Of a stretch of DNA of 64,000 bases, positions 561 through 60,544 are shown one piece after another. A model generated the notes under the pieces. It saw only the letters and a list, made by a program, of their open reading frames with translations, was not told the DNA's origin and made no database searches. Both the position numbers and the translations under genes were made by a program. How positions within the stretch are numbered: the first letter of the stretch is position 1; each line of letters opens with the position of its first letter. This DNA comes from Candidatus Levyibacteriota bacterium. Its GTDB lineage: Bacteria > Patescibacteriota > Microgenomatia > Levybacterales > UBA12049. The stretch spans positions 822,528 through 886,527 of the forward strand of contig OY970292.1 of NCBI GenBank assembly GCA_963716145.1. The letters run 5' to 3'.

Positions 561-2708
561 TTAAGGTTTTGGCAAAACTGGGGTGGCGGGACTTGGTGAT
601 TGTACGGGTTCTTGCATAGCAGAACTGACTGGTGGTGTTACCGGAGGAGGTGTCTGTGGATTAGCTCCGCTTGGGGGGATTGGAGCGGAGGGTTCAGATG
701 TTGGCGCCACTGTGGGATCAGGCGTGGTAGCGCTGACTTGAGAAGGAGCGGAAGACGTTATTGTAGGTGCGTTCTGGCTAGGTAGAGTTTGGTTTATTGG
801 TGGAGAGGTTGACAACGCCGACGCCGGGGGCGTAAGGGTTGGTGCTGGCGGTGTGGTTATGAGTGGGGGTGCAATGGGCGCTACAGGTGCAGCGAGACTA
901 TCATTGAGTTTTGATTTTGCAATTGCTGCCTCTTTATCCTGCTGTCTTTTCATTAGTTCTGCCGGGTTTGAAGTAATTAGTTCATGCTCAAAAGGCGCTG
1001 CAAAGACTTTCATCGCCACATGGTTTTGTCCGGCAAAAAATAGTCCCTCCCCCACGTCAGATGATAGAAGCAGGGCTTTTTCCCCTTCTGAGAGATAAAA
1101 CGTGTTGGCAATCATATCCACTTCAGCTGTGCCTTGCTTTAGAAGAATCTGGATTGAGGAATTGGTCAGAACAGCTTTTCCATACTCATTTTTGAGAAAA
1201 TCCTCAACATCCTGAGTTGCGGTAGTCATTCCTAGATAATATTTTCTTGCCCGCTTTGCAAGTGAGTAGACAAAAGAGGCTGAGTCCTGATATTTCATCA
1301 TATACCATGCCTCATCAAGAATTAGAATCCTTTTTTTCAGATTCTTTTTTACCTTTGTCCAGACAAAATCAAGAATGATATGCATGGCAACAGCCCGGAG
1401 TTCTTCTTCAAGATTGCGGATTGAAAAAATAGTCAGCGGATTGTTAATCTCAAAATTTGACTGCTGATTGAAAATCCCAGCAGCTGATCCTTTAATGAAT
1501 TTTTCCAGCCGGTATGCTAGATCTTTCGCCGGCTGATTTTCCATGCCAAGGAGAGTTTTGTATAAGTCTTCCATAAGGGGAGGCTGTTTTCGTTGGGTTG
1601 CCGGATCAGTTGTGATTCCTTTTTGGCGGTAGCATTCAATAAGCGCACGATCCATAATCGCATCATGTTCAGCATCAAGATCACCTGTTATGAGCTTTAA
1701 AAGTCCATGGAGGGATAGAATTTTGAGACCCAGTTCGTTTTCTCCTTCTTCAAAAACATCAGATAAATCAAAAGGATTAATTTTTATCTCTGAGCTTGAT
1801 GAAAAATCCACCACCTCACCGCCAAGAGCCGGTGTCATAGTCTCGTACTCTCCCTCAGGGTCAATTACAATTACTTCAGCCCCAAGCATAAATTGGCGTG
1901 CAATCTCAAGTTTAATAGCATAAGATTTTCCAGCACCTGATTTTCCCAAGACTACTTCGTTGGCATTTTCAAGCGAGAAGCGATCAAAAATAATCAGCGA
2001 GCCGTTTTGTTGATTAACCCCATACATAACCCCTTTATTTTGCGTCAAAATGGCCGAAGTGAAAGGGAAGGTTGAGGCAAGCGATGAGGTATCCATATTG
2101 CGTGTAACATATAGCCTGTCAAGTCCGAGAGGCAGTGTTGACTTAAATCCTTCTTCCATTTGGAGAGTTGCCGTTTTTCCGGCAAGAAGAAGGGAGCCAA
2201 GAGTTGTCTGAAGCTCTTTAACTGTTTGTTGAAGCTCGGGTAGATCAAGCGCTGACACGGTGATATAAAATCCGAATTGGAAAAATCGTTCAATACCCTT
2301 TGCGAGCTCTTCCTGAAGTCCGAGGGCATCTTCAAGCGCTGCTTCAACCGTTGGGTCAGTAACTTTGCCGGCTTCCGCATCGGACGAAAGAGTTGCCTGC
2401 ATTTCTCCAATTTTACGCTTAAGATCTGTCAGAACGTCTTTGGATGATGTGGGATAGCAAAACATTGATATATCCAGAGTGTGATCATAATCAATAATCG
2501 GCTGAAGCCAACCTGGGGAGACATAGCGAGGATAGCCTGCGATAAAAAGGGTTGTGTAAAAAGAATCTCCGACTCGTATGTAGCGGAAATCAACCTCAAC
2601 TGATGAAGGAGCGATGATATCAATTATTGACGTTAATCCCTTTTCAACTGCCCCAATAGCCTTGCTTGACTGAGCAGTAACAGCAGGGACCTGTTTTTTT
2701 GCCCCCAA
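561..2708 (-). CDS. virB4: VirB4/TrbE-like type IV secretion ATPase with C-terminal Pro/Thr/Ser-rich low-complexity tail
   Basis: 715 aa; Walker A GKSGAGKS followed by IVIDPEGEY; overall VirB4/CagE-like order; about 110 aa P/T/S-rich tail. Track start is a TTG. An ATG at 2766 in another frame, joined through T7/T8 runs, would give MKLPFSKKTPANPAVAPTAVG... and abut the stop of the upstream gene. Confidence 0.75.
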   Translation of the reverse strand: MGAKKQVPAVTAQSSKAIGAVEKGLTSIIDIIAPSSVEVDFRYIRVGDSFYTTLFIAGYPRYVSPGWLQPIIDYDHTLDISMFCYPTSSKDVLTDLKRKIGEMQATLSSDAEAGKVTDPTVEAALEDALGLQEELAKGIERFFQFGFYITVSALDLPELQQTVKELQTTLGSLLLAGKTATLQMEEGFKSTLPLGLDRLYVTRNMDTSSLASTFPFTSAILTQNKGVMYGVNQQNGSLIIFDRFSLENANEVVLGKSGAGKSYAIKLEIARQFMLGAEVIVIDPEGEYETMTPALGGEVVDFSSSSEIKINPFDLSDVFEEGENELGLKILSLHGLLKLITGDLDAEHDAIMDRALIECYRQKGITTDPATQRKQPPLMEDLYKTLLGMENQPAKDLAYRLEKFIKGSAAGIFNQQSNFEINNPLTIFSIRNLEEELRAVAMHIILDFVWTKVKKNLKKRILILDEAWYMMKYQDSASFVYSLAKRARKYYLGMTTATQDVEDFLKNEYGKAVLTNSSIQILLKQGTAEVDMIANTFYLSEGEKALLLSSDVGEGLFFAGQNHVAMKVFAAPFEHELITSNPAELMKRQQDKEAAIAKSKLNDSLAAPVAPIAPPLITTPPAPTLTPPASALSTSPPINQTLPSQNAPTITSSAPSQVSATTPDPTVAPTSEPSAPIPPSGANPQTPPPVTPPVSSAMQEPVQSPSPATPVLPKP

Positions 2709-2762: not shown

Positions 2763-3440
2763 TCATGTCTTGGGTCCTCCTGTTACAATCGATGCTCCTA
2801 CAGCCGGATCAATTTGCTCAACTTCAATATCTGCACCATTGTTATAAATGTCGTAAAAAAGTTTAATTAAATCTTCCCGTTCCAGCACCCTTGCCGATAC
2901 TGCAAACTTTTGTAGTTGACCAAGTACCGTTTCCGCTTTGGATTGCAGACTTTTCGCCGCACCTTCCGGCAGAGACTTGGTTTGAGCATTTGTTTTTTGT
3001 CCCTTTTGAGCCGTTTGCTTCACACCAACCATGCCCATCTCAAGTGAGGAGAATGGAATAACTATGTAAAACGACTTGTTTAGAACAACATTTACCGTTA
3101 CCATTTCCTGGACAAAATCACGGTAGTAGCCGATGTAGGTCTGTAGCTGCGGGTTTTTGCTGCTGGCAATTATTTCATCCAAGTCCTTTAAATACGAGGT
3201 AATATCAATTCTTTTATTCCTTATAAGTATTTGGATAGGGAAAGACAGCGAGTTGAGAAGAGAAGCATAAGAAAAAATTCTGCTGTCCTGCTCTCTTTTG
3301 GACAAAAGAGCAAAATTGCTTGCAGTTATTTCAATTATCAGACAAGCAGCTCCACCTTCCATAACGACCACATTTTCAACGAAATCAACAATCTCGGTGA
3401 ATTTTTGGGTTGACGCATGAATTTTTTGGGCAGCACTCAT
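2763..3440 (-). CDS. hypothetical protein, translationally coupled upstream partner of virB4
   Basis: 225 aa ORF, no recognisable motif; its stop at 2763 directly precedes the candidate virB4 ATG at 2766. Confidence 0.45.
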   Translation of the reverse strand: MSAAQKIHASTQKFTEIVDFVENVVVMEGGAACLIIEITASNFALLSKREQDSRIFSYASLLNSLSFPIQILIRNKRIDITSYLKDLDEIIASSKNPQLQTYIGYYRDFVQEMVTVNVVLNKSFYIVIPFSSLEMGMVGVKQTAQKGQKTNAQTKSLPEGAAKSLQSKAETVLGQLQKFAVSARVLEREDLIKLFYDIYNNGADIEVEQIDPAVGASIVTGGPKT

Positions 3441-3443
3441 AAT

Positions 3444-4757
3444 TTAACTAAATAAATCCTTTCGTAGCTCTTCACGTTTATCATAAGAAGTAATTTCAAT
3501 CGGCTGCATTATTTGATCATTTGCGGTAATTTGGATGGAATCAAACGTGTGCTGCTTTTTTAGATCCTCAAGCGTTATTGTATATGTGCCTGAAGCAAGC
3601 GGCGTAGCAGATGCAAAATTGCCAAGTGAGTTGGTTTTAAAGGCTCTTACCGGATTACCGCTTTTGTCTTTTATTTCAACCAGAATGTTGGGTAGGACGT
3701 TTCCTCTTGCATCCTTAACCATTCCCGAAACTACATTTGGTGTATCTGATGCAAAAATTCCAAGGCGTTTGTTCATGTCTGTTGGCACGCTTCTCACATG
3801 CGGAGTTTTCGTTTCAATAGGAGTTGTTTTTGCGACATCAGTTTTTGCAGCAGGTACTGCCGGAGTAGCCTGCTGGGTTGATAATTGTTTTTTTAAGTTC
3901 ATAATTTCCTGCTCAAGTAACTGTTTTTGGGAATGAATTTCCGCAACCTGTTTTTCCAGATCTTGCGCTTTCAGGGGAGCGTCCGGAAGAATACTCGGAG
4001 ACTGAAGAGTAGCCTCTTGATGCGTTGCGAACTCTAATTGTTTTTCTAAAGCAGCTTCTTTTTCAGAAAGAATTTCAGGCGATGGTTTTACGGCCGGGAC
4101 ATTTGCGATTGGTTTATCAGAGGGCTTTGGTGATGCATTTGGCAGATTTTTAGGTAAACCGGGAGGGGTGGCTGGAAGCGTTTGGCTTTGGGGAGTTGCG
4201 ACTGGAGATGCCAGAATAGAGCTAAGAAATGCCGCTTCCCGCGCGTCTTGTGGGTTTTTTATTTTACTCTCAGAACTATTAATTAAAATTTTTTGCAATT
4301 CCCTTCCTCTCTCGTTAATCATTTTTTGCTTTGGGGTACTATGCGCATCCTGTCCTGAGCTTGTCGAAGGATGCGGTTTGGAAAGAGATATTGTTGAAAA
4401 GCTGAATTTTTTATCCATCTTGTGGTATATGTATTGATTTGGAGAGAATAAAGCTTTCATAAAATTTCCTGCCATAATGTCAATAGGTCTACCGTCAACC
4501 GGAACAAAAGCCAGGATTGGTCCGCTTGCCCCAAAAAGAGGTATAAGGAGGATTTTTAAAAAGATAGCAAGAATTCCACCAGGTAAGGGCAGATAATAGA
4601 TTATCGCAGCTCCTATGACGCCTGCCGCAACATAGCCAAACTGCTTGACAGTCATCGAGCCTATAAGCTTAAACTGAAATCCTGTTACATTTTGTGGTAT
4701 TGGGTGTTGGTCCATTGCTGATACAAAAAGTGTATAACGTGAAAAATAGCATTGCAA
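3444..4757 (-). CDS. membrane protein: N-terminal TM hairpin, Pro-rich linker, coiled coil, C-terminal beta-sandwich-like domain (VirB10-like architecture only)
   Basis: 437 aa; TM segments at about residues 40-95; PATPPGLPKNLPNASPKPSDKP Pro-rich; heptad-like QLLEQEIMNLKKQL; C-terminal GNVLPNILVEIKDKSGNPV...GTYTITLED resembles carboxypeptidase-regulatory/Big-type fold. Confidence 0.45.
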   Translation of the reverse strand: MQCYFSRYTLFVSAMDQHPIPQNVTGFQFKLIGSMTVKQFGYVAAGVIGAAIIYYLPLPGGILAIFLKILLIPLFGASGPILAFVPVDGRPIDIMAGNFMKALFSPNQYIYHKMDKKFSFSTISLSKPHPSTSSGQDAHSTPKQKMINERGRELQKILINSSESKIKNPQDAREAAFLSSILASPVATPQSQTLPATPPGLPKNLPNASPKPSDKPIANVPAVKPSPEILSEKEAALEKQLEFATHQEATLQSPSILPDAPLKAQDLEKQVAEIHSQKQLLEQEIMNLKKQLSTQQATPAVPAAKTDVAKTTPIETKTPHVRSVPTDMNKRLGIFASDTPNVVSGMVKDARGNVLPNILVEIKDKSGNPVRAFKTNSLGNFASATPLASGTYTITLEDLKKQHTFDSIQITANDQIMQPIEITSYDKREELRKDLFS

Positions 4758-4816: not shown

Positions 4817-5143
4817 TTATTTGCAGCCGCCATTGTTAATGGCTTCAATATTCGTAATACAGTCTGAGGATTTGGTGATAAAGCCGATAAAGTACAAAAT
4901 GGCAAAAGAGGAAAGGACGGTAATAGCGCCGATTATTGCATAGTTCATGATCTTGCGGGCTGCTTCTACTTGCTTGGGATCACCACCTGATGTAACTAGT
5001 CTGATGCCGGAATAAATAATCAGAGAAAGAGCAACAACGCCGACAAATATCAGAAAAGCATTAACGACATTGTGAAAGACAACGGGAAGACAGCGAAGTG
5101 TCGCAACACCATTCTCAACGCAATTTCCCCAAGGTTGAAACAT
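4817..5143 (-). CDS. small two-TM hairpin protein, VirB2/TrbC-like putative T4SS pilin (paralog 1 of 3)
   Basis: 108 aa; two hydrophobic helices separated by loop TSGGDPKQVEAARKIMNYAIIGAI. Same motif as ORFs 50536..50982 and 50998..51321 (SGGDK..ARxxI..AI(I/V)GL). Confidence 0.45.
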   Translation of the reverse strand: MFQPWGNCVENGVATLRCLPVVFHNVVNAFLIFVGVVALSLIIYSGIRLVTSGGDPKQVEAARKIMNYAIIGAITVLSSFAILYFIGFITKSSDCITNIEAINNGGCK

Positions 5144-7377: not shown

Positions 7378-7382
7378 AAAAA

Positions 7383-7922: not shown

Positions 7923-7953
7923 AAAATTAAGTTAAATAGTCAATTTACCAGCT

Positions 7954-10581: not shown

Positions 10582-10590
10582 TCTACTATG

Positions 10591-13847: not shown

Positions 13848-13886
13848 TATGCAACTTCAGAAAGATATAAATATTTTAGCAGAAAC

Positions 13887-24840: not shown

Positions 24841-24894
24841 TACATTCACTCTCATCGAGAGATGAGATTTATTTTTTTGTATTAATTAACCAAT

Positions 24895-26081
24895 ATGGCA
24901 GACACAAAATTTAACAGAACTAAACCACACGTAAATATCGGAACAATCGGTCACGTTGATCACGGTAAGACCACCACTTCAGCTGCAATTGCAACTGTTC
25001 TCTCCAAAGAAGGCGGATGGCAAAAGCAATGAAGTACGAAGATATTGATAACGCCCCTGAAGAAAAAGCCCGCGGAGTCACCATTAATATTTCCCACCTA
25101 GAATACGAAACAGAAAAACGACACTATGCACATATCGACGCTCCAGGACACGCTGATTATATTAAAAACATGATCACAGGTGCAGCTCAAATGGACGGAG
25201 CAATTCTAGTTGTTTCAGCGCCAGACGGACCTATGCCACAAACCCGTGAGCACATTCTTCTTGCACAACAAGTCGGAGTTCCAGCAATCGTTGTTTTCCT
25301 TAACAAATGTGACATGGTTCAGGATGAAGAGCTTTTGGACTTCGTTGAAATGGAAGTCCGAGAGCTTCTTACAAAATACGAATATCCAGGCGATAAAACT
25401 CCAATTATCCGCGGATCAGCACTTAAAGCACTTGAAGGAGACGCAGAAGCAGAAAAAGCAATCTTAGAGCTTATGGAAACAGTTGATGAATATATCCCAA
25501 CTCCTGAGCGAGCACTGGACAAGCCATTCTTAATGCCTGTTGAGGACGTTTTCTCAATCAAAGGTCGTGGAACAGTTGTTACCGGAAGAATTGAGAGAGG
25601 AATAGTTAAAGTAAACGAAGCTGTTGAGATCGTCGGACTTGATAAGAACAAAGAATCAGTTGTAACCGGAGTTGAAATGTTCAAAAAACAGCTTGATGAT
25701 GGACAAGCAGGAGACAATGTTGGACTTCTTCTCAGAGGTCTTGAAAAAGACAGACGTTGAACGCGGCCAAGTTATTGCAAAACCAGGAACTATTACTCCT
25801 CACACAGAATTTGAAGCAGAAGCATATATCTTAACCAAAGAAGAAGGCGGACGACACACACCATTCTTTACAGGATACCGCCCACAATTTTATATCAGAA
25901 CAACTGATGTTACCGGAACAGCAACACTTCCAACAGGTGTTGAGATGGTTATGCCTGGAGACAAACAAAAATGACAGTAAAACTTATTGTGCCAGTTGCC
26001 CTTGAAGAAGGACTCCGATATGCAATCCGAGAAGGTGGAAAGACAGTCGGAGCAGGAGTAATTACCAAAATAATAAAATAA
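24895..26081 (+). CDS. tuf: translation elongation factor Tu; reading frame broken at at least three positions (about 25015, 25745, 25968), likely sequence errors
   Basis: [27 protein letters not shown]...; frame shifts after VLSKEGG (gga-tgg should be gga atg), before [10 protein letters not shown] and before [35 protein letters not shown]; all three pieces are canonical EF-Tu. Confidence 0.9.
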
Positions 26082-26088
26082 CCTAAAG

Positions 26089-26111
26089 AACCCGAGAAAT
26101 CGGGTTTTTTT
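26089..26111 (+). terminator. rho-independent terminator after tuf
   Basis: aacccgagaaatcgggttttttt: 5-bp GC stem, GAAA loop, T7. Confidence 0.7.
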
Positions 26112-33189: not shown

Positions 33190-33338
33190 AATGAGCGTAA
33201 ATGTGGTATAATTCATGCGTAGAATTTTTAATTTGAAATTTTCAATTTTCATTGAAATCCAAAATGTTTAAAAATTTAAATTTAAAACATTAAATATTCA
33301 TTTCAAATTTTAAATTAAAAATTAAATCTTAATAAATT

Positions 33339-42766: not shown

Positions 42767-43207
42767 ATGAATCAAGCAAGTATAACAACAGCTACAAAAG
42801 TATCGGATATTAAGCGTTCATGGCACTTTGTTGATGTAAAAGGTAAGGTGTTAGGGCGTATTTCGACCGACATAGCAAAGCTTTTGATGGGCAAGAACGA
42901 AGCCTATTTTGTACGCAATCTTGATTGCGGAAATTTTGTGGTGGTTGTCAACGCAAAGGACATTAAAGTAACAGGCAACAAAGAAGAACAGAAAAATTAT
43001 TACAGACACTCAGGATATCCGGGAGGTTTTAGGCAGGAGACACTTCAGGAACTAAGAGTGCGAAAGCCTGAAGAAATTGTAATTCGTGCCGTAAAAGGAA
43101 TGCTTCCGCAAAACAAATTGCGAGACAAAATGCTAAAAAGACTTTTTGTTTTTGCAGGCGAAGAACACAAGTATGCTGATAAATTTGGAAAAAACGTATC
43201 AGCATAA
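42767..43207 (+). CDS. rplM: 50S ribosomal protein L13
   Basis: 146 aa typical uL13. Confidence 0.9.
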   Translation: MNQASITTATKVSDIKRSWHFVDVKGKVLGRISTDIAKLLMGKNEAYFVRNLDCGNFVVVVNAKDIKVTGNKEEQKNYYRHSGYPGGFRQETLQELRVRKPEEIVIRAVKGMLPQNKLRDKMLKRLFVFAGEEHKYADKFGKNVSA

Positions 43208-43275
43208 TTTTCAATTTGAAATTTTCAATTTTCAGTGAATTTTTCAAATTAAGAATTAAAAATTAAATTAATACT

Positions 43276-50535: not shown

Positions 50536-50982
50536 TTAACTGCCAAAAGTAGGTATTTTTAGGCTACGAATATCCCCTAGGCCAAATGCGCTTAGGACAA
50601 TTTGTACTATGAAGTAAGCAACAAAGGCGACAATGAGACCCACAATGGCTGCAACGATATGCTTTCTCGCTTCATCAACTTTTCCTTTGTCTCCACCGGA
50701 GGTTATCCATCTGATTCCACCATAAACTAGGTAAAAAAGAGCGATGATAACTGCCGCGATCAGAAGAAATGTTAATACAGTGCCTATGATGCCACCTGCT
50801 TTATCTGCTTTGAAGTTGTCGCAGAGTTTGAAAAAAGTTGAACTCCGAGGGCAGGGATCAAGATCTGTCTCTGCAAACGCAGGAAGAGCTGAGTAGGCGA
50901 AAGCACTAAGTCCTAATAATATTGCTGAAACCTTTTTCATAAGTACATATCTATGATAGAACAATGTTTTTCTGCTTGTCAA
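50536..50982 (-). CDS. VirB2/TrbC-like two-TM pilin-like protein (paralog 2)
   Basis: 148 aa; signal-like N-terminus; YGGIRWITSGGDKGKVDEARKHIVAAIVGLIVAFVAYFIV. Confidence 0.45.
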   Translation of the reverse strand: MTSRKTLFYHRYVLMKKVSAILLGLSAFAYSALPAFAETDLDPCPRSSTFFKLCDNFKADKAGGIIGTVLTFLLIAAVIIALFYLVYGGIRWITSGGDKGKVDEARKHIVAAIVGLIVAFVAYFIVQIVLSAFGLGDIRSLKIPTFGS

Positions 50983-50997
50983 TATAGCAAAATATAA

Positions 50998-51321
50998 TTA
51001 AGCAAAATTTAGAAGGTTTACCTTGAAGAAATAGCCAATAAGGCTAACAATGAAAAACGCAGCAAACGCGACAACAAGCCCAATTATTGCCCAGGTCAAT
51101 TTTGCACGAGCTGCTTGAAGCTTTGTTTTATCTCCGCCTGATAGAATCCATTGTATGCCGGCAACTACTATAAATATAAGCGCCAAAGCTACGCAGATTA
51201 TGATCATGATGATAAAGCTATTGCGGAAAACCTTACTTACTGTACCAATGCCTCCGGTTGGGATACCAGGAGGGGCAGAGATTGTTTGTCCGCCGGGAAG
51301 AGTTAATGCCAAATAGTTCAT
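50998..51321 (-). CDS. VirB2/TrbC-like two-TM pilin-like protein (paralog 3)
   Basis: 107 aa; AGIQWILSGGDKTKLQAARAKLTWAIIGLVVAFAAFFIV. Confidence 0.45.
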   Translation of the reverse strand: MNYLALTLPGGQTISAPPGIPTGGIGTVSKVFRNSFIIMIIICVALALIFIVVAGIQWILSGGDKTKLQAARAKLTWAIIGLVVAFAAFFIVSLIGYFFKVNLLNFA

Positions 51322-51495
51322 ACATATACAGTACTAAGTTCGGGCGATAAAAGCAATAGTACTAGGACAATTTTTAATTTTCAGTTTTCAATTTTCATTG
51401 AATTTTCAATGACTAAATGTTTAAAAATTAAAACATTGTGATTTGATTGAAAATTGTAAATTTCAAATTGAAAATTATAGTGTTACAATAATTGT

Positions 51496-52929
51496 GTGGA
51501 GCAAGTTCATTTTGAATCGCTTTATCCTGATACAGCCTGGTCCTCAGAAATTGAAAAACTGGGAAGTTTTATAAAAGACGGTACATCCTGTCAATTATTG
51601 AGTATACCTGGTGCCGGAAGATCAACTATTTTGGGTCTTTTGGCGCATAACAGCAAAATACGTATAAAGCATTTCGGTAAGAATCAGGCTGCAATCCATT
51701 TTGTAGCTGTTAATTTTTCAGAGATTAAAAAACGTCCGCTTTTTGACGTGATGAAGTTTTTGTTTCTGTCTCTTGCCGACTCTCTTCGGGCGCGCAAAAT
51801 GGAGGAATATGAGAAGATTAATGATCTGTTCAAAGAATCTTTGGGATTTAATGATGAGCTTGTGCTTTTTCAGGCTCTAAAAGAAGCTATTGATTATCTT
51901 GCTCTTGAAAGAAAATTTAAGATTGTTTTTTTGTTTGATCGATTTGAGGAATATGTGCCCAAAGTAACCAGCGAGTTTTTTACCAATCTCAGAACTCTTA
52001 GGAATCGTGCCAAATATCAATTTTCAGTGATTTTTTCTCTCAACAGACCGCTTGAGGAGCTCTTGGAACAGGATCAGCTTTTCGACTTTTATGAATTTAT
52101 CGCAGGACATTACGTTTACTCAGGCCTATCTGATAAAGTCACAACAGATTTCCGCGTTGCATATATAGAAAAAATTACAGGAAAAAAAATTCTGCCAAAA
52201 ATACTTACCGGTATTCTAGAAGAGACAGGGGGAGTGGGAAGACTTATCAAGTTATCAGTTGAGACAGTCCTGGCGAATAATAAATTCGAAGCACGAAGCA
52301 CGAAATCCGAGACAAATATAAATAACAAAAATCCAAATACGAAAAATGTTTCGAGTTTCGACCTGCCTGCCGGCAAGGCAGGTATTCGGATTTCGGATTT
52401 GGGTTTGGGGGAATATCTTTTTTCACAAAAACCAATCCAAAGTGCTCTAATGGAGATTTGCCGCTCGCTTTTACCAGTTGAGCAGGCGGCACTTATTAAT
52501 AACAAATTTGATGACCCGCAAGCAGAAAGTTATCTTGAGACTGTTGCAATAATTAAAGCTAGGAAAATACAAATTCCTCTTTTTGAGAAACATATTAAAT
52601 CGCACGTTGGGAAATTTCAGCAAGATGCCAAAAAAATTGTATATGATCAAAACACAAACGCTATAAAAATGAACGAGGTTGTCTTATCTGATCAGCTGAC
52701 TTCGTCTGAGTTTAGACTGCTGAAATTTCTTCTGCAAAATCCTGACAGAATTGTTGATAGAGACGCGCTGATTGGCGTTGTATGGTCAAGCGTAAAATCA
52801 ACCGCCGGTATAACCGATCAGGCAGTTGACCAACTGGTTTTTAGAGTAAGACGGAAAATAGAAGACGACCCTAATAATCCCGTTCACCTGCTTACTGTTA
52901 AAGGGCGGGGATTTCGATTCGTTTCCTAA
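51496..52929 (+). CDS. regulator: N-terminal P-loop-like ATPase (Walker A Lys replaced by Arg) fused to C-terminal OmpR/PhoB-type winged-helix DNA-binding domain
   Basis: 477 aa; LSIPGAGRSTILGLL; IVFLFDRFEE (Walker B-like); C-terminal ...LTSSEFRLLKFLLQNPDRIVDRDALIGVVW...DQLVFRVRRKIEDDP...LLTVKGRGFRFVS matches the trans_reg_C pattern. Confidence 0.6.
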   Translation: MEQVHFESLYPDTAWSSEIEKLGSFIKDGTSCQLLSIPGAGRSTILGLLAHNSKIRIKHFGKNQAAIHFVAVNFSEIKKRPLFDVMKFLFLSLADSLRARKMEEYEKINDLFKESLGFNDELVLFQALKEAIDYLALERKFKIVFLFDRFEEYVPKVTSEFFTNLRTLRNRAKYQFSVIFSLNRPLEELLEQDQLFDFYEFIAGHYVYSGLSDKVTTDFRVAYIEKITGKKILPKILTGILEETGGVGRLIKLSVETVLANNKFEARSTKSETNINNKNPNTKNVSSFDLPAGKAGIRISDLGLGEYLFSQKPIQSALMEICRSLLPVEQAALINNKFDDPQAESYLETVAIIKARKIQIPLFEKHIKSHVGKFQQDAKKIVYDQNTNAIKMNEVVLSDQLTSSEFRLLKFLLQNPDRIVDRDALIGVVWSSVKSTAGITDQAVDQLVFRVRRKIEDDPNNPVHLLTVKGRGFRFVS

Positions 52930-52994: not shown

Positions 52995-55900
52995 ATGATA
53001 GAGCAAAAATTGACAGCCAGAGAGGCTTCCCGATATGATAGAAGAGGAGCAAAATATATGTCAGAAACAGGAGCAGCCGTATTGGAAAGATCGGAAGAAT
53101 CAGATGAAGAAAAACTGTATAAAAAATGGGAGCCTTTTTTGGCGCAAGCTACCAAGCCCGAAGAACGCGCCCACATACTTGATCTTATAACTCAACGTAG
53201 AGAACCACCCTCAGAAGATCCAAGTGAATTAACGCAGGCCAGATTGAGAGAAATGTCCCAGGATGAGGTTGATAAGAAATTTGCCGCCATGATCAAAAAG
53301 CCTGAGATTAACAGGCCTGAAGATTTAAAGGGGCTTGACAAGATACTGGATAAGTACCAGGAGCAGGCAAAGGGCGCAGACGGTCTATTGGGAGATGAGT
53401 CGGTAGCACCAGGGGAAGTCTTGCGGGATAAGGACAGCTGGGCAGAGTATGGATGGAGCGATACTGAGAAAATCAGAGTTGCTGGTGACCTAAAGACCAC
53501 CCTTGCGAGCTTAAAGCTTACCGATAAACAGGTAGATACTATGATGGAAATTTTTCTTTCCGAAGGTAAATTGCCTGAACATTTAACAAAAGGAAAAATA
53601 GAAGAGATATCAGCCAACATATGGGATGAATGGGAGAAAGACCCAAATATCAGACATGATTATAAAAATGAATTCGATATATTTGTAATGCAGAAGTTGG
53701 GAATTACGGAAAAGCAAATAAAGCATTTTATTTTGACTGATAAATTTGAACAGGATAATGATATGTATGTTGATTATAATTCTCCACGAAATATTGAGGC
53801 CCTTGCCTGGCAGATCATGCACACCCCCGGTAAAGGATACGCAGGGTGGGGTATTAAGGGCGAGCGTCCGCTTCTTGAGATGCGGATAGTAAAGAATGCT
53901 GATGGAACTGTTGACACAGACAAGAGCCGTTACCGTGTAAATACAGCAAATATGGTTGCTTGGGCACGTTACAGCATGTATACCGCCTATGATCTTGACC
54001 GTGAAACTCCTCACAATTTTTTTCAGGAAATTGCTTTAAAGAAAAGATACCCGCTTTCTCTTCAAGAGATGCTTCTTAATCCTGATCAGTATTTTGTTTC
54101 GGAAGACGGAGAGACAAAATATAAACAAATGCTGCTGGAGTGGTATAAGGAAGCGGCTGTTTTTACAACTGTCAGGGGCTGGGATGTTGCTTACCGTGGA
54201 GTAATAGGAGATAGCGAGGAGCTGATGAAGGTTTTTAGGGAAATGTATAACACCCAAAATTTACTGACCAGAGGAGCTCTTGGTTCCAACATACTTAATC
54301 TTATGACAACTATGCCATTGGATTTTCAGGGGACAAAAGACGGTCAATGGAATAGCGATAGTAAGATGGGGGCCGGTTGGATTGATATCTATAGAGCTTA
54401 CGACAGCATGACTGATTTTGATAACCTGCAAAAGATACTTGGCAAGGGCTCAAAATTTTTTACCCGCGCAGGTTTCTCGGAGGCGATAAAAGAAGTGGAA
54501 AAAGGCAAGATTACAGCAACAGGTATAACTAAGTCAAGAGTGTTTATGGGTCGTAAGGAGCTTGAGTTTTTTAAAAATGCATTTGATGACAAGGGGGAGA
54601 TTTCATCTGAGGCGAATAAGGTAAATTTTATAAAACTTATTAATATTTTCGGAACCAAGCAGCCTGGAGCCGGAGTTGAGTTTGCAGTGCGTTTTGCACT
54701 GCGCAATGCTATTGCTGAAAAATACGGGGAGGAAGTGTACGTTAAAAATGCAAAGGGTGAAATCATGAAGGATGAAAATGGAAAAAAGATAAAAACGCAT
54801 GCTTTTGTTACTACACAAGGGGAGAAAAAAGGCGACGAGATAGAAAACAGGATAGCAGATAATGAAAGTCTATATATAGCTGAGGCAATTGCCTGGTCGC
54901 TGGCCAGACCATTTGGCGCGGCCGCCAAAAATGATCCTGATTCCATAGCGCATGACTATATGGCCAAAATTTATAATACCCAGCTGCTGCGTGAGAAATA
55001 TCCTCATCGCGGAGACAAACTTGGTAATGAGCTGACAATGAATTTAATCAAGCGGACAGGTGTTGATATTCTTAACGCTGTAGTAACAGAAGCCCAGACA
55101 CCCGAGCTGGATTCAGAGGGAAAAGTAATTTATAAAACAAAAGACGATAGGGCAAACAACCGCCCGGTAATGCGTGACAAAACTCCAATGGAACTCTTTG
55201 TTGAGCTGTCTGAGTTCAGGACAATAGCAGCTAGTGAGATACGGTTAATGAGAGATAAGCTTATGGGAATGACCAGGGGAACAGAGGAATGGAAAAGGCA
55301 AAAGGATTTGGTAGATGCCTACGAACAGCAATCAGAGCAAAAATACCAGAATATAGCTTCCCAAATATCTATCAGACAAAGAGTGCTTTCGAACTATTAT
55401 GAAGATCATTTGAGGTATGCCTCTGACATATTTAAGCAGGTTATGAACGCGGATGAAATAGGATTTGATAAATTCACCGATTACAATGTCTTCGGAGGTG
55501 TGCGGTTCAAGCAGGCGGAATTTCAGAAAGAGGTGCAGGATACCTGGATTCATAAGATCCGTTACATGCTCGATACTTATTCGAGTCTTAACTTTAATCA
55601 GACTGTGCGTGTTTTGGATCAGAAAGAGACATCAAGACGGCATTGGGACGATCATCGTGAGTCTGAACCTGCTTTTCATGATGTTCCGCTGGGTGAGGCG
55701 CTTTTCGGGCACGAAATGCTCAATATACCAAAATTCTGGAAAAGAGACGATAAAGGGAGGCCGATAAATTTGAGAGATAATAAAGGCCGGAAGATGAAGG
55801 GACTCTACGAAATTGATTATTTGAAAGTACAGGAGAACAAACAGGATGTCTGGAAGCAATGGTTTATGATCAAAGTTGCCGCGGATTTACGCTCGCACAA

Positions 55901-56210
55901 AATGCTACACGGTAATGATGTCAGATATAATTTCACATATTATCAAAATGTTATTGAGTCACTGGGAAGAATACCGGGGAATATTTTGCAGGATGAATAT
56001 AAGATGAAGGATACAGTAGTAAACGAGCGTTTTTTCACAAAAGCCAATATTGCATGGCTGCGTGAAAAAGCAGGCGTAACGAATTTTAACCTTTATATGG
56101 GAGCAATACTTAAAGATCTGATTTTGGAAGAGGATAAGCCTGAGGAGGGAATAGGACTGCTTCTTGCCTTAAGTCTCGCGATGAAAGCAATTGTACGGGA
56201 TAAAGTTTAG
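52995..56210 (+). CDS. giant hypothetical soluble protein (1071 aa), Lys/Glu/Asp/Trp/Tyr-rich
   Basis: single uninterrupted ORF, no signal peptide or TM, no recognisable motif. Confidence 0.6.
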   Translation: MIEQKLTAREASRYDRRGAKYMSETGAAVLERSEESDEEKLYKKWEPFLAQATKPEERAHILDLITQRREPPSEDPSELTQARLREMSQDEVDKKFAAMIKKPEINRPEDLKGLDKILDKYQEQAKGADGLLGDESVAPGEVLRDKDSWAEYGWSDTEKIRVAGDLKTTLASLKLTDKQVDTMMEIFLSEGKLPEHLTKGKIEEISANIWDEWEKDPNIRHDYKNEFDIFVMQKLGITEKQIKHFILTDKFEQDNDMYVDYNSPRNIEALAWQIMHTPGKGYAGWGIKGERPLLEMRIVKNADGTVDTDKSRYRVNTANMVAWARYSMYTAYDLDRETPHNFFQEIALKKRYPLSLQEMLLNPDQYFVSEDGETKYKQMLLEWYKEAAVFTTVRGWDVAYRGVIGDSEELMKVFREMYNTQNLLTRGALGSNILNLMTTMPLDFQGTKDGQWNSDSKMGAGWIDIYRAYDSMTDFDNLQKILGKGSKFFTRAGFSEAIKEVEKGKITATGITKSRVFMGRKELEFFKNAFDDKGEISSEANKVNFIKLINIFGTKQPGAGVEFAVRFALRNAIAEKYGEEVYVKNAKGEIMKDENGKKIKTHAFVTTQGEKKGDEIENRIADNESLYIAEAIAWSLARPFGAAAKNDPDSIAHDYMAKIYNTQLLREKYPHRGDKLGNELTMNLIKRTGVDILNAVVTEAQTPELDSEGKVIYKTKDDRANNRPVMRDKTPMELFVELSEFRTIAASEIRLMRDKLMGMTRGTEEWKRQKDLVDAYEQQSEQKYQNIASQISIRQRVLSNYYEDHLRYASDIFKQVMNADEIGFDKFTDYNVFGGVRFKQAEFQKEVQDTWIHKIRYMLDTYSSLNFNQTVRVLDQKETSRRHWDDHRESEPAFHDVPLGEALFGHEMLNIPKFWKRDDKGRPINLRDNKGRKMKGLYEIDYLKVQENKQDVWKQWFMIKVAADLRSHKMLHGNDVRYNFTYYQNVIESLGRIPGNILQDEYKMKDTVVNERFFTKANIAWLREKAGVTNFNLYMGAILKDLILEEDKPEEGIGLLLALSLAMKAIVRDKV

Positions 56211-56215
56211 AGATG

Positions 56216-58084
56216 CTATGATTTGGGTTTTGCGCCATTTTTATTTCTTCGTCTTTGCCTAAAGGGTACTCTTTCACCTCTTTCTTTCCGAATTGCTTCC
56301 CTTTCCGCCTCAATGGTTTTTTCGAATCCGCCCTCCCCATGTACTGTTCCTTGTCTCTCAATAAGTCTTCTTGATGCCAGACCTCTCTCAGCCATAGAAC
56401 CGAGAATAGGCACGCGGGATCCGGCTCCGATTATCTTTTCACCGGTTTTACGTTTCAAAACAGCAAGAGCTCCCTTGTCACCGCTTCTCGCGTCATATCT
56501 ATTTAGATGCTTCATTGCACGCCCCACCGGTGCGCCAACTACCGCAGCTCCAGCGGCAATTCCAGCTCCAACAATTCCCGGAGTGCCGATATTTTTGACA
56601 CCCATTTTCTCACGTAGAATGGTCTGGATAGTCGGGGCAATCAGAAGCACTCCAAATGCCATAAGCGCTCCGAAATTGGTGCTTGATGGATTTCCCACAA
56701 GGGGAGGTACGAATTGATTGGGAGATGCCGTACTATATATATCCAAAAGCAAACGCGCGGCAATTAAAAGAAACACTGTTAGAGGAAAAATGGCAATATT
56801 GACAAAAAGCCTTCTGATCCAGCTTTCAAAACCCATAGGTTTGGTTGGAAGCAGCCCAAAAACAATAATAATAGGCGCCAATATTACATAGGCCAGAGTA
56901 TAGATATATGCTTTAAGGAGATTAAACCAGATTTTGAATAGATTTATAACCAAAATTACGAAAATGATAATTTGCGCGACAGCGCTGACGAGAACAGCAA
57001 GGAAATTGGCAACGCCTTTTTTGGCGCATTTTATGGGATGATACCACTTGCATTTTGTTTCCAGATCATTTTCATCAAACATCAAACTTCTTGCTACATT
57101 GCCGATAGTGTTTCCCGCGCTGTCGGCAACTGATTTGGTCATGACATGAAATCCGCCGTCGCGATCATTACCTTCACCAATAGATAAAAATCCTGTTTCC
57201 TCGCTGCACCTGGCAAAAATTTGATTAAAATAAGTAATAGGAGTCTGAAGAATTGTGCTGGTTGCTTTTTCTGAAAGCTTTTCCGGCCCGGCAGTTTTAT
57301 CTGTACAGTTGCCTACATCCGGGTCATGAGTGGCAGTAAGTAAGTAGGATCCTGCATAAGTAGTCACCCACATCAGGTCAATAAGCATAGCCGAAATCGC
57401 GTAAGAGAGAGTAATAAGTATTATCGAAACTATTACTTTGGGAATTTGATTCTGAATAGTCATGACTGTCCTGGGGTCAATTTTTATCCTTAGCATGATA
57501 CCAACGCCAATAAATACAAACGCAAGAGTCAGAAGAACATAGGCGATATTGCGCACAGTTTCCCAGAGTCCGATAATCGGCTGGAGGCCGCACAATCCGT
57601 AGCCTGATTTAGCAGGATCACAAGGCGCTACCGCGGCATAAGCTTTGGGGACAATGCCGAATTTATCTGAGATATACCGCGTATACGTTCCTGTTGATGC
57701 AATCGGCTGATAGGTTGAGGTGATCAGACCGGTTGAAATACCCACAAGTCCCCCAATTTCCGGCTTGCCATACTCATCGAGTACAGGTTTACTCATCCCT
57801 AGTCTTTTGGTCTCAGGATTGATGCCAAGACAGCCTTGAGTCGGGTTGATCGGATCAACCCCGATTAGTAGACAATGTATAGCTGATAAAACTTCAATTG
57901 TTGTTGACTGGGCAAAAGTGTGTTGATTGAGGGGAACATCCGGATCCATATTTGGAGCCGCGAAAGAATTGGTTGTCGTAGTAGCCGAAGTGGGGGATAT
58001 TTGAGCAAATGAGGGCTTGGAAGCCATAAATAACAACCCAACAATAACAAATAACAAACAGAATAAAACGCGGACAGAGCGCAT
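56216..58084 (-). CDS. VirB6/TrbL-like polytopic membrane protein with signal peptide and long basic C-terminal tail
   Basis: 622 aa; MRSVRVLFCLLFVIVGLLFMASKPSFA signal; about 8 TM helices in the middle; hydrophilic Arg/Lys/Gly-rich C-terminal 110 aa. Confidence 0.4.
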   Translation of the reverse strand: MRSVRVLFCLLFVIVGLLFMASKPSFAQISPTSATTTTNSFAAPNMDPDVPLNQHTFAQSTTIEVLSAIHCLLIGVDPINPTQGCLGINPETKRLGMSKPVLDEYGKPEIGGLVGISTGLITSTYQPIASTGTYTRYISDKFGIVPKAYAAVAPCDPAKSGYGLCGLQPIIGLWETVRNIAYVLLTLAFVFIGVGIMLRIKIDPRTVMTIQNQIPKVIVSIILITLSYAISAMLIDLMWVTTYAGSYLLTATHDPDVGNCTDKTAGPEKLSEKATSTILQTPITYFNQIFARCSEETGFLSIGEGNDRDGGFHVMTKSVADSAGNTIGNVARSLMFDENDLETKCKWYHPIKCAKKGVANFLAVLVSAVAQIIIFVILVINLFKIWFNLLKAYIYTLAYVILAPIIIVFGLLPTKPMGFESWIRRLFVNIAIFPLTVFLLIAARLLLDIYSTASPNQFVPPLVGNPSSTNFGALMAFGVLLIAPTIQTILREKMGVKNIGTPGIVGAGIAAGAAVVGAPVGRAMKHLNRYDARSGDKGALAVLKRKTGEKIIGAGSRVPILGSMAERGLASRRLIERQGTVHGEGGFEKTIEAEREAIRKERGERVPFRQRRRNKNGAKPKS

Positions 58085-58150
58085 AGCTATTTTAGTTTGA
58101 GGTATTTTGAATGGGTTGTCAAGTTCTGCAAAGCAGAATTTTAAGCCTTG

Positions 58151-58235
58151 CGGAGAGGACGGGACTCGAACCCGTAATCCCGTTTCCGGGACACGCGCTT
58201 TCCAAGCGCGCCGACTACCATTATCACACCTCTCC
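58151..58235 (-). tRNA. tRNA-Ser (anticodon GGA), type II with long variable arm
   Basis: acceptor GGAGAGG/CCTCTCC, anticodon arm CGCGC-TTGGAAA-GCGCG, variable hairpin CCCGGAAACGGG, T-arm ACGGG-TTCGAGT-CCCGT, discriminator G. Confidence 0.85.
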
Positions 58236-58459
58236 TTTTTTTAATCTAAATTTCTTCTAAAATATTTTCTCCCACGCGCACTCTTGTCCGCCTCTGGCGG
58301 AAGACCACCCCGCCAAAGGCGGGCAGGTATGCGACCCTTCCATTTCAAAACTATTATATAAGGTAAATGTCAAGCGATTTAGCTCGAAATTTCCTATACT
58401 TGTCTGGTAATTATACCTGATTAGTTTCATATTTGCATAAAAGGGAGGGAGGATATAAA

Positions 58460-59314
58460 ATGACAGAGAACGATTATATTATGGACCCATTACCACCAGA
58501 TAGACCGGGATCTAGACCAGGAGATCCCCGAGCGCCACGTGAAGCCGGGCCTCCGATAGTACCTAGGCCTACCCAAGATCCGAAAGAGGCAGCAGATCAT
58601 CCTCTTGGTCCAGCTATTCCCTCACCGTCCAGAAAGGAAGGTGTAGGTGATGAAACCGTGGAGGCCTGGACAAAAGGCGCAACCTCGCGCAGCAGAATGA
58701 GTCCATCAGAAACTGTCGAGAAAGTATTGCCCGCACGTGGACTGGATTTGCCAACTGGCGAAAGAGGACAAGAAGATGCTGCCCGCGACTTGGAACTAAC
58801 GACGAGGGTAGTAAATGAAAACATTAGTATTCCTGAGATGGCTGCTATTGCTAATGAATTTGGAATTCCAAGGAATATGGTGTCGCACGAATTTGCGCAG
58901 ATGGGTGTTAAGCCGGAGAAAATCGAGGAACTTATGCAGCATCAGCATCTGCTGCTGCCCGAATTAACAGAGGCCGAAAAAGTAAACGTCTCTGATCCTG
59001 TCACCGAAGAGGTAATACAAGCCGGAAAGACAAACGCAGAAAAGGAATTGGAAGCTGGAATTTTTGAAGATGTAAAGAAAAGGTTTGAGACCGAAGCTGA
59101 ACCTCAGGAGGGTGACTTAGAAAAGATAGCCACAGTAAGAAAGGGATTTAATAAGTTTTTATTTGACGAGAATGAGGGTATTTTAAGAAGAGAGGGACGA
59201 AAAGCAAGACTTTTTGGAAAACCGCTGGTGGTTGGATTAATGGCCACATTTCTTGCCTATCTTTCGCTTTTGAGTCTTATGACAAAGTGGGCGGCCAAAA
59301 GAGTAGGAAGTTAG
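58460..59314 (+). CDS. hypothetical tail-anchored protein, Pro/Arg/Glu-rich N-terminus, C-terminal TM
   Basis: ATG 58460 after gggagggagg; C-terminus GKPLVVGLMATFLAYLSLLSLM; G+C higher than host. Confidence 0.45.
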   Translation: MTENDYIMDPLPPDRPGSRPGDPRAPREAGPPIVPRPTQDPKEAADHPLGPAIPSPSRKEGVGDETVEAWTKGATSRSRMSPSETVEKVLPARGLDLPTGERGQEDAARDLELTTRVVNENISIPEMAAIANEFGIPRNMVSHEFAQMGVKPEKIEELMQHQHLLLPELTEAEKVNVSDPVTEEVIQAGKTNAEKELEAGIFEDVKKRFETEAEPQEGDLEKIATVRKGFNKFLFDENEGILRREGRKARLFGKPLVVGLMATFLAYLSLLSLMTKWAAKRVGS

Positions 59315-59386
59315 TGTCCCCGGCGGGAATCGAACCCACAACTGAAGCTTCGGAAGCTCCTGTTTTATCCGTTAGACTACGAGGAC
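59315..59386 (-). tRNA. tRNA-Arg (anticodon CCG)
   Basis: acceptor GTCCTCG/CGGGGAC (one G-U), anticodon arm GGAGC-TTCCGAA-GCTTC, T-arm GTGGG-TTCGATT-CCCGC, discriminator A. Confidence 0.75.
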
Positions 59387-59503
59387 TCTTCTGCTCCGGC
59401 TGCGTAAATTGCTCTGCAACATTTTCAGGCGAAACGTAAGAAATTTCTCAAGAAATTTCAACGTTTCTGCAACGTTGAAATCGCAAAGCGATTTCTTACG
59501 TTG

Positions 59504-59587
59504 CGGAGGGTACAGGATTCGAACCTGTGTAGGGATTACTCCCTCGAGTTTTCGAAACTCGTGCAATTGCCACTATGCGAACCCTCC
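59504..59587 (-). tRNA. tRNA-Ser (anticodon CGA), type II
   Basis: acceptor GGAGGGT/ACCCTCC, anticodon arm CGAGT-TTCGAAA-ACTCG, variable hairpin AGGGAGTAATCCCT, T-arm ACAGG-TTCGAAT-CCTGT, discriminator G. Confidence 0.85.
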
Positions 59588-59692
59588 TTGTTCGCCAGTT
59601 GGCGAACACAATGAACTAAGAACAAAGAACTTAGAAAACTTTCTATTCTTGGTTTTAAGTTCTTAGTCCTTAGTATTCTGCTTTGCAGAATG

Positions 59693-59766
59693 TGTTCCCG
59701 AGTGGATTCGAACCACCGGCCTTAACGTCCGCAACGTTACGCTCTATCCAGCTGAGCTACGGGAAC
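59693..59766 (-). tRNA. tRNA-Arg (anticodon GCG)
   Basis: acceptor GTTCCCG/CGGGAAC perfect, D-arm GCTC-AGCTGGATA-GAGC, anticodon arm TAACG-TTGCGGA-CGTTA, T-loop TTCGAAT, discriminator A. Confidence 0.8.
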
Positions 59767-59816
59767 ATGTGTGTATTTTACCTAATATGGTCTAGGCTTG
59801 CAATTAAAATGAAATT

Positions 59817-60392
59817 TTACCGGCTTGTCTTTTCAAGAGGAAAGTTTTTTGAGAGCCAATCTCCTGATTTTTCCGTAAAAGTGGGCTTAACATATTCACG
59901 GTAAGGAAGGTACGGTAGAAGAATTGGTTTTATCTCCTCAGCCGTAATATCTCCAAGTGAAATCTTTAATTCTCCGGGAAAATAACTCTTGGTAGTCAAA
60001 TACAATACATCTTTATCATGATGTTTTATAAAGAAAAAATCATACAATTCTTCCCAGATAAAAAAATAATCTTCAACCCGTATGCCCTCCGTCGTAATTT
60101 TGTAGTAAAAATCATGAGGTGGGACAATTGATAAAGCAAACCACAGAAAAACCAATGAGAATATAGCACCCATTAAAAAAAAGTCTTTAGATGCAATATA
60201 AACTATGATTTCAAGTGCTGCCATTATCAGGAATCCGTTGAAAAAATACTCACGTGAGTGTTCTTTGAAAGGCCTACCGGGGGCGTGCCATTCTAAAAAA
60301 GTTCTGACATCATGTGTAAAGGCCGGGTTTTGTTCTCTTTCTTCTGGTTTTGGCTTATGTTTTGGGGTAGTCACACTTTTAATGTAACTCAT
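59817..60392 (-). CDS. membrane protein with two TM helices and a bacterial PH (bPH_2/DUF304)-like C-terminal domain
   Basis: start moved to ATG 60392 (MSYIKSV...) because the track ORF (to 60542) would overlap tRNA-Ser(TGA). Confidence 0.4.
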   Translation of the reverse strand: MSYIKSVTTPKHKPKPEEREQNPAFTHDVRTFLEWHAPGRPFKEHSREYFFNGFLIMAALEIIVYIASKDFFLMGAIFSLVFLWFALSIVPPHDFYYKITTEGIRVEDYFFIWEELYDFFFIKHHDKDVLYLTTKSYFPGELKISLGDITAEEIKPILLPYLPYREYVKPTFTEKSGDWLSKNFPLEKTSR

Positions 60393-60435
60393 TTTCAAGA
60401 CAAAAGTCAAGAAATTTGCTATACTTGAGCCTCCT

Positions 60436-60522
60436 GGAGAGGTCGCATAGTGGTCTAGTGCGGATGTCTTGAAAACATCTGTGGGCGCAAGTCTACCGCG
60501 AGTTCGAATCTCGCCCTCTCCG
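60436..60522 (+). tRNA. tRNA-Ser (anticodon TGA), type II
   Basis: acceptor GGAGAGG/CCTCTCC, anticodon arm GATGT-CTTGAAA-ACATC, long variable arm, T-arm GCGAG-TTCGAAT-CTCGC, discriminator G. Confidence 0.85.
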
Positions 60523-60544
60523 CAACGTAAGAAATCTACCAAAT

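Follow-up and report, generated by a model that had tools for sequence, protein, structure and literature searches.

Several type IV secretion systems (T4SS) of Patescibacteria are known to include tandem genes for small pilin-like proteins. Wang et al. (2023; PMC10633639) described a series of predicted pilins within the essential T4SS cluster of Southlakia epibionticum, in which the six-pilin array of S. epibionticum ML1 is essential. In a survey of 3,035 Patescibacteria genomes with the profiles PF04956 and PF18895, Quinonero-Coronel et al. (2025; PMC12102498) catalogued arrays of 2–11 VirB2-like pilin genes beside virB4 in Saccharimonadia and, above all, in Microgenomatia. A review from 2025 (PMC12857230) treats a pilus as a possibility and the function of these proteins as unsettled. 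VirB2-like pilins of the archaeal Ced and Ted systems are assembled into pili by monoderm cells, and a leader is cleaved from some of them but not from others (PMC9905601). Here we consider three pilin-like genes, denoted p1, p2 and p3, in a stretch of 64,000 nucleotides (nt) from a Candidatus Levyibacteriota bacterium of the Microgenomatia (assembly GCA_963716145.1, contig OY970292.1, positions 822,528 to 886,527), the whole of which is referred to as the window. The three genes belong to a chromosomal T4SS gene set that is typical of the ultra-small Patescibacteria.

All three open reading frames (ORFs) are found on the minus strand where a first-pass annotation of this DNA had placed them: p1 at 50536..50940 (134 amino acids, aa), p2 at 50998..51321 (107 aa), separated from p1 by 57 nt, and p3 at 4817..5143 (108 aa). 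The encoded proteins are identical to the database proteins P0004, P0001 and P0003, respectively. The original ORF call for p1 was longer (50536..50982, 148 aa from a TTG codon). Since this TTG is the −35 hexamer of a promoter-like site, and the database protein as well as all orthologues start at the ATG at 50940, the 148-aa call is too long and its TTG is a false start. In BLASTP comparisons p1 and p2 share 49% identity over 57 aa (E = 2e−17), p1 and p3 share 35% (E = 3e−11), and p2 and p3 share 36% (E = 1e−12). The three are true paralogues, as the first-pass annotation had it.

Hydropathy reveals two strongly hydrophobic helices in each protein, connected through a loop of the pattern SGGD(K/P)xKxxxAR (SGGDKGKVDEARK in p1, SGGDKTKLQAARAK in p2 and SGGDPKQVEAARK in p3), and the earlier description as two hydrophobic helices with a short charged loop is thereby borne out. 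The loop residues S, G, G, D, A and R are invariant among 58 aligned family members, and in a six-frame motif scan of the window SGGD in such a context is restricted to p1, p2 and p3. The second half of the motif originally ascribed to all three, AI(I/V)GL(I/V)VAF, is present in p1 and p2 only; the corresponding residues of p3 are AIIGAITVL. Likewise, the signal-like N-terminus claimed for each protein is seen in p1 alone, which has a predicted Sec-type signal peptide (MKKVSAILLGLSAFAYSALPAFA, ending in ALPAFA and followed by ETD, with cleavage after AFA) and, ahead of the two-helix hairpin, an N-terminal tail that holds a pair of cysteines (Cys). The N-terminal tails of p2 and p3 are short, non-hydrophobic, and without a signal peptide. 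The p3 frame is open for just three codons upstream of its ATG, and the protein contains four conserved Cys, two in either tail.

Assignment to a family is clear for all three proteins. Scores against the Pfam family PF18895 (T4SS_pilin, gathering cut-off 26.6 bits) are 39.3 bits for p1, 35.5 bits for p2 and 34.1 bits for p3, and all 58 aligned relatives match the same family; the check by T4SS_pilin hidden Markov model that the first-pass annotation had proposed thus comes out in its favour. The best NCBIfam match is in each case NF045849, the Mbov_0395 pilin-like conjugal transfer protein (E = 1.3e−7, 9e−6 and 8e−5), with scores of 31.1, 25.3 and 22.2 bits that stay below the 40-bit cut-off of this model. 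The helical hairpins that were expected from structure prediction are confidently modelled for p1 and p3. The AlphaFold2 (AF2) model of p1 consists of a hairpin of helices 45–80 and 85–118, with a predicted local distance difference test (pLDDT) score of 80–91; the model of p3 consists of helices 16–51 and 56–89, with a mean pLDDT of 78.6 and values of 85–91 in the helices. Fold searches show these hairpins to be pilin-compatible, not pilin-specific.

The second line of evidence is genomic context. A scan with one genome per species returned 212 related stretches, of which 78 loci were kept, almost all of them from Patescibacteria (the closest from Candidatus Levyibacteriota, with 68% identity), and the proteins of the window were mapped onto the six-frame ORFs of these loci. 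A single contiguous cluster is present in about 23 related Levyibacteriota loci, in the order VirB6-like gene (+), gene for a 1071-aa protein (−), regulator, p2, p1, p3, PrgI, TrsD-like gene and VirB4, and the copies in the window are therefore orthologues of a fixed p2-p1-p3 triplet. In the window this cluster is broken after p1: the part that comprises p3, PrgI, TrsD-like gene and VirB4 is located about 45 kb away on the same strand, and the interval consists of core chromosome, including the ribosomal protein operon and SecY. The break after p1 is shared with three related loci (L002, L004 and L005); there, as in the window, genes for a PD-(D/E)XK nuclease and a 255-aa protein then follow p1. 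In more distant lineages of the Candidate Phyla Radiation (CPR), namely Woese-, Pace-, Gottesman- and Blackburnbacteria, 5–11 tandem pilin genes are followed by the VirB6-like gene and then by PrgI-TrsD-VirB4. Across the 78 loci, 414 of 415 pilin ORFs share one strand, and the number of copies per locus ranges from 1 to 11 among CPR lineages. The window qualifies as a pilin array as defined in PMC12102498, that is, at least two tandem pilin genes near virB4 and other T4SS genes.

The same context bears on an alternative that the first-pass annotation had raised, namely that the three genes have nothing to do with secretion and encode small membrane proteins of a holin-like or immunity type. 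Small size, two transmembrane (TM) helices and a charged loop would suit such proteins. However, no holin family, nor any other annotated family, is matched in PHROGs, the best Pfam match is T4SS_pilin above its cut-off, and synteny with VirB4, VirB3 and VirB6 is kept in most of the 78 loci. Neither endolysin, toxin nor phage genes adjoin the pilin genes, whose neighbours are T4SS, regulator and nuclease genes, and we regard this explanation as effectively refuted.

The three genes represent three distinct orthologous classes. Core identity within a class amounts to 61% for p1, 46% for p2 and 54% for p3, as compared to 34–43% between classes, and 67 of 72 sequences have their nearest neighbour within their own class. 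The classes also differ in their individual features. All p1 orthologues (23 loci) have a signal peptide ending in AFA or ALA together with a C-x(8-12)-C pair. Members of the p2 class never have a signal peptide and share a conserved N-terminal tail, LxLPGGxTIxxPxxIPxGG. In the p3 class four Cys, two per tail, are found in 18 of 24 orthologues, and the proteins exist in two forms (compared among P0027, P0031, P0018 and others): one of about 135 aa with a Sec signal peptide, seen in many relatives, and one of about 108 aa that lacks it, seen in the window and in many of its close relatives. In the sub-lineage of the window the leader of p3 has been lost, with the four Cys retained. We also considered that the missing signal peptide of p3 reflects an assembly error, given that tuf is frameshifted in the window; this was rejected because the same 108-aa form recurs in many independent assemblies of relatives. 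The conserved Cys pairs in both tails would fit a topology with both termini outside and the basic loop inside.

It has been suggested for the VirB2 arrays of Bartonella and Anaplasma, and tentatively for those of Patescibacteria, that such paralogues are interchangeable variants of one major pilin that serve antigenic or host-range variation (PMC12102498). The variable number of 1 to 11 copies per locus among CPR lineages and the low core identity of paralogues inside one genome (34–46%) agree with this suggestion. Against it stand the stable orthologous classes and the fixed p2-p1-p3 order in about 23 Levyibacteriota genomes, an identity that is higher within than between classes, and class features that differ in the manner of functional specialisation, with a signal peptide in p1 only, a characteristic N-terminal tail in p2 and four Cys in p3. 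For the genes considered here we hold interchangeable variants to be very improbable. The fixed gene order, the higher identity within classes, and the class-specific signal peptides and Cys patterns together argue for specialised, non-redundant roles.

On this basis we consider it reasonably probable that p1, p2 and p3 are VirB2-like T4SS_pilin subunits of a chromosomal T4SS that polymerise in the manner of pilins. Family membership and T4SS linkage are established by the data above, whereas polymerisation is argued from VirB2 and TraA as well as from the pili of the archaeal Ced and Ted systems (PMC9905601). The suggestion of the first-pass annotation that the proteins are VirB2/TrbC-type subunits is accordingly upheld by PF18895, by the linkage to a T4SS cluster and by published arrays, with the exception of strict membership in PF04956. 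A possible sequence of events is as follows. The hairpins would be inserted into the cytoplasmic membrane by Sec/YidC, such that both tails face outwards and the basic SGGD...AR loop faces the cytoplasm; p1 would be processed via Sec and signal peptidase I, and p2 and p3 would be inserted without a cleaved leader. The hairpins would then accumulate as a membrane pool, from which the VirB4 ATPase, on a platform of VirB3 and VirB6, would extract them and assemble them as a stack outside the cell, either a tube or a short conduit, with the SGGD...AR loop as the lining of its lumen. The cell might use this structure to contact a host bacterium. The classes would be non-redundant, for example with one major subunit and specialised minor, initiator or tip subunits.

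A number of observations weigh against polymerising pilins. The cut-off of PF04956 (TrbC/VirB2, 27.9 bits), the second profile proposed as a check by the first-pass annotation, is reached by none of the three: p2 scores 12.5 bits (E = 0.18), and p1 and p3 have no match at E ≤ 1. In favour of pilins, however, 16 of the 58 relatives do match PF04956 at E ≤ 0.1 (best E = 1.9e−6). When the T4SS_pilin family was compared by hhalign with eight genuine VirB2/TrbC proteins, encoded on Ti and further MPF-T plasmids, the two helices and the loop aligned in register, but without significance (E = 0.19). A sequence search of the PDB with the family profile returned no pilin; its matches were PscF and proteins designed de novo, at E ≥ 0.02. 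Neither a VirB5-like tip protein nor VirB1 nor a coupling protein was identified among the scanned ORFs of the window. No pilus built from the T4SS_pilin family has been observed, and reviews speak of a possibility only (PMC12857230). Finally, a profile search of 1.84 billion cluster representatives, which resulted in 74,689 matches at E ≤ 0.001 and 14,504 matches at E ≤ 1e−10, revealed that about two thirds of the 150 best matches are long proteins with 2–17 tandem hairpins per polypeptide. For example, P0241 (L088:1777-3435) consists of 552 aa with six hairpin units and is encoded inside an ordinary pilin gene array; P0287 (L089:10001-15328) consists of 1775 aa with 17 hairpin units and is encoded beside a gene for ribosomal protein L39e, which indicates that this contig is archaeal. 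We found no description of such natural 'poly-pilin' fusions in the T4SS-pilin literature cited here. Fusions of 2–17 hairpins are unlike what is expected for a classical free pilin subunit, and a ring or tube of laterally packed hairpins accommodates them more easily than do pilin monomers that diffuse freely.

The fusions therefore keep alive a second explanation, according to which the hairpins form a non-filamentous part of the translocon, such as a ring, pore lining or stalk around or together with VirB6, packed like a c-ring and not extruded. Several tandem hairpins in a single polypeptide readily fit a fixed ring or bundle of this kind, and monoderm MPF-FATA systems, the kin of the Patescibacteria VirB4, are generally without pili (PMC12102498, PMC10633639). 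In Gram-negative systems, moreover, the pilin is required for transfer even where no pilus is made (PMC12857230). A further hint is an hhalign alignment (E = 0.11 only) in which the loop and second helix of the pilins fall on the TM2-loop-TM3 stretch of the VirB6-like protein; a comparable similarity between pilin and VirB6 N-terminus has been noted for CedA1/CedA and VirB2/VirB6 (PMC9905601). This alignment is not significant, however. The sequence links lead to pilins, in the form of PF18895 and TrbC matches, and to no known fixed translocon subunit, and surface exposure is suggested by the several paralogues, whose tails are exposed and stabilised by Cys. A fixed translocon ring is, in our view, a real possibility, albeit a rather doubtful one.

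One further proposal we put forward as speculative and consider unlikely as a whole. A single heteromeric assembly of hairpins could require all three classes, none of which could stand in for another, for example with p1 as the bulk and the leaderless p2 and four-Cys p3 as initiator or tip, packed so tightly that 2–17 hairpins were repeatedly fused in bacteria and archaea. The family might then build a lipid-embedded tube or ring that acts as a conduit for nutrients or DNA between epibiont and host, and not a classical retractile conjugative pilus.

The genes downstream of p3 encode further T4SS components. A PrgI/VirB3-like membrane protein (3444..4757, minus strand) is located directly downstream of p3, a position that it takes in 44 of the 78 loci; it matches PF12666 (PrgI, 28.4 bits, cut-off 27) and has a C-terminal CarboxypepD_reg domain (PF13620, 36.3 bits). 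It is followed by a TrsD-like protein of 225 aa (2763..3440, minus strand), a free-standing counterpart of the N-terminal domain of VirB4, which aligns with positions 109–261 of the NCBIfam model VirB4_plasma (E = 6e−8) and with TrsD (E = 3e−4), both below the cut-off. A gene of this type stands between PrgI and VirB4 in 38 loci, and the description of TrsD given in PMC12102498 fits the protein of the window. The VirB4-like T4SS ATPase itself (561..2708, minus strand) is of the monoderm CD1110 type and is without an N-terminal domain. It matches NF045971 with 383.9 bits (cut-off 325), covering positions 186–734 of the 752 positions of the profile, and also matches PF19044, PF12846 and PF01935. 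The statement of the first-pass annotation that the third pilin copy adjoins VirB4 has to be corrected, as the PrgI-like and TrsD-like genes stand between them.

On the other side of the break, a regulator of 477 aa (51496..52929, plus strand) is encoded divergently from p2. It consists of an N-terminal P-loop-like region (GAGRST) and a C-terminal winged-helix DNA-binding domain of the OmpR/PhoB type (PF00486 Trans_reg_C, 63 bits). Its PDB matches are OmpR/PhoB DNA-binding domains, restricted to residues 400–476, and it has no receiver domain. The regulator adjoins the pilin genes in 31 of the 78 loci. Next to it lies the gene for the conserved protein of 1071 aa (52995..56210, plus strand), soluble and highly charged, which is found at this place, flanked by the regulator and the VirB6-like gene, in 18 of the 78 loci. 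This gene had been taken for the VirB6-like neighbour of the regulator. The protein has no TM helices and no match in Pfam, NCBIfam or PDB, and hence is not VirB6-like; assignments as effector, type IV coupling protein or relaxase were rejected on the same grounds. The protein may be a component or a substrate of the T4SS that is specific to this lineage.

A candidate for VirB6 is encoded by the adjacent gene instead. The protein at 56216..58084 (minus strand) is a polytopic membrane protein of 622 aa with about eight TM helices. It has no match of its own in Pfam (E ≤ 5), NCBIfam or PDB, and the VirB6-like profile is likewise without a PDB match. Its orthologues (P0123, P0124, P0136, P0167 and P0189, with 36–60% identity), however, reach PF04610 (TrbL/VirB6, gathering cut-off 25.9 bits) with 25.9–30.4 bits over the equivalent TM region, which makes the protein a probable divergent member of the VirB6/TrbL type. 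The gene co-occurs with the pilin genes in 53 of the 78 loci. Homologues of VirB6 have been described as 'scarce' in Microgenomatia, probably because of extreme divergence (PMC12102498), and the gene of the window fits this remark. Judged by the orthologues, the protein is probably the 'missing' divergent VirB6 of this class, overlooked by standard profiles.

The sequence between p2 and p1 contains a promoter-like site, TTGACA-18-TATCAT (50953..50982, minus strand), that agrees with a near-consensus sigma-70-like promoter in 11 of 12 positions and is situated about 12 nt upstream of the p1 ATG. It is a consensus match only, and the region overall is no richer in promoter-like sites than shuffled sequences. 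From its position, p1 could be transcribed from a promoter of its own, with a very short leader. No obvious Shine-Dalgarno sequence was seen at any of the three pilin genes. The spacer between regulator and p2 contains an AT-rich dispersed element with tandem TGAAAAT heptamers (CAATGAAAATTGAAAAYT-like; 51369-51475), which also occurs in two other intergenic regions (33237-33254 and 43207-43237); 7 copies are found at ≤3 mismatches, as against 1.07 expected. We considered the heptamers upstream of p2 as a binding site of the regulator. This was rejected, as they are also present at about 33.2 kb and 43.2 kb, and the assignment is further undercut by their absence from the equivalent spacer of related loci, with the exception of L027.

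The remaining window consists of ordinary chromosome, with genes for elongation factor G (EF-G), ribosomal proteins, SecY and glycosyltransferases. Directly upstream of p3 (5188-15587, minus strand) large membrane glycosyltransferase-like genes are located, comprising DUF2298, three PMT_2, a 521-aa protein without assignment and an NAD-dependent epimerase, possibly a surface glycosylation locus beside this part of the T4SS. The tuf gene (EF-Tu, about 24890-26090, plus strand) is broken over at least four frame segments in alternating frames: an N-terminal piece with GHVDHGKTT, the ORFs 25017..25760 and 25672..25974, and a C-terminal piece. This indicates either assembly indel errors or a pseudogene, and the ORF calls of the window therefore need care. 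Five tRNA genes are found at 58150-60523, just past the VirB6-like gene, with the specificities Ser-GGA, Arg-CCG, Ser-CGA, Arg-GCG and Ser-TGA. The last of these (60436-60523) overlaps a 241-aa ORF call (59817..60542), the start of which is therefore doubtful.

Patescibacteria, which live attached to other cells, account for a large share of the diversity of bacteria, and in the one species tested a T4SS with its pilin array is essential. The element described here is of an already published kind, and its recognition is correct but ordinary, given that such pilin arrays are described in PMC10633639, PMC12102498 and PMC12857230. The window is one more typical example and by itself leaves existing knowledge unchanged. 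What is added is modest: three distinct conserved classes with different export signals and Cys patterns, the split cluster, the probable divergent VirB6, and the poly-hairpin fusions of 2–17 units in the wider family. As a clean minimal case, with three conserved pilin classes, a probable VirB6 missed by profiles and a dedicated regulator, the locus could guide experiments.

Compared to known systems, the proteins of the window resemble VirB2, TrbC and TraA (PF04956; T-pilus and F-pilus) in their small size and in two hydrophobic helices that form a hairpin around a short basic loop, in register by hhalign, in the predicted Sec leader of p1, and in being encoded alongside VirB3, VirB4 and VirB6 homologues; some close relatives match PF04956. 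Unlike these pilins, they score at most 12.5 bits against a cut-off of 27.9 (hhalign E = 0.19), their loop has about 7 additional residues and an invariant SGGD...AR, and p2 and p3 are leaderless, whereas the leader of p1 ends in AFA with cleavage predicted. The host is monoderm and without VirB5, VirB7, VirB9 and VirB10, and of the two groups only the classical systems have a demonstrated pilus. With the archaeal Ced and Ted systems (CedA1, TedC; PDB 8dfu; PMC9905601) the locus shares a monoderm cell, a minimal set of VirB2, VirB4 and VirB6, and, by prediction, a mix of processed and unprocessed pilins; sequence similarity is not detectable, and Ced and Ted import DNA. The pilin-like proteins Mbov_0395 and MMCAP2_0565 of Mycoplasma integrative and conjugative elements (ICEs; NF045849) are the best NCBIfam match, with nearly the whole 80-position model covered, and VirB4 and the TrsD-like protein of the window also match the neighbouring Mbov_0397 ATPase model. 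The proteins of the window score below the cut-off and are not equivalogs, and the Mycoplasma proteins reside in mobile ICEs, not in a chromosomal housekeeping system. From the Patescibacteria arrays the locus differs in its mere three copies of fixed orthologous classes, in the distance of 45 kb between p2-p1 and p3-PrgI-TrsD-VirB4, and in a putative VirB6 partner too divergent to match PF04610 itself. It agrees with them in a PF18895 match above cut-off, the two-helix hairpin and multiple divergent paralogues, and in the chromosomal linkage to a monoderm-type VirB4, TrsD, PrgI/VirB3 and VirB6, with no relaxase or coupling protein nearby.

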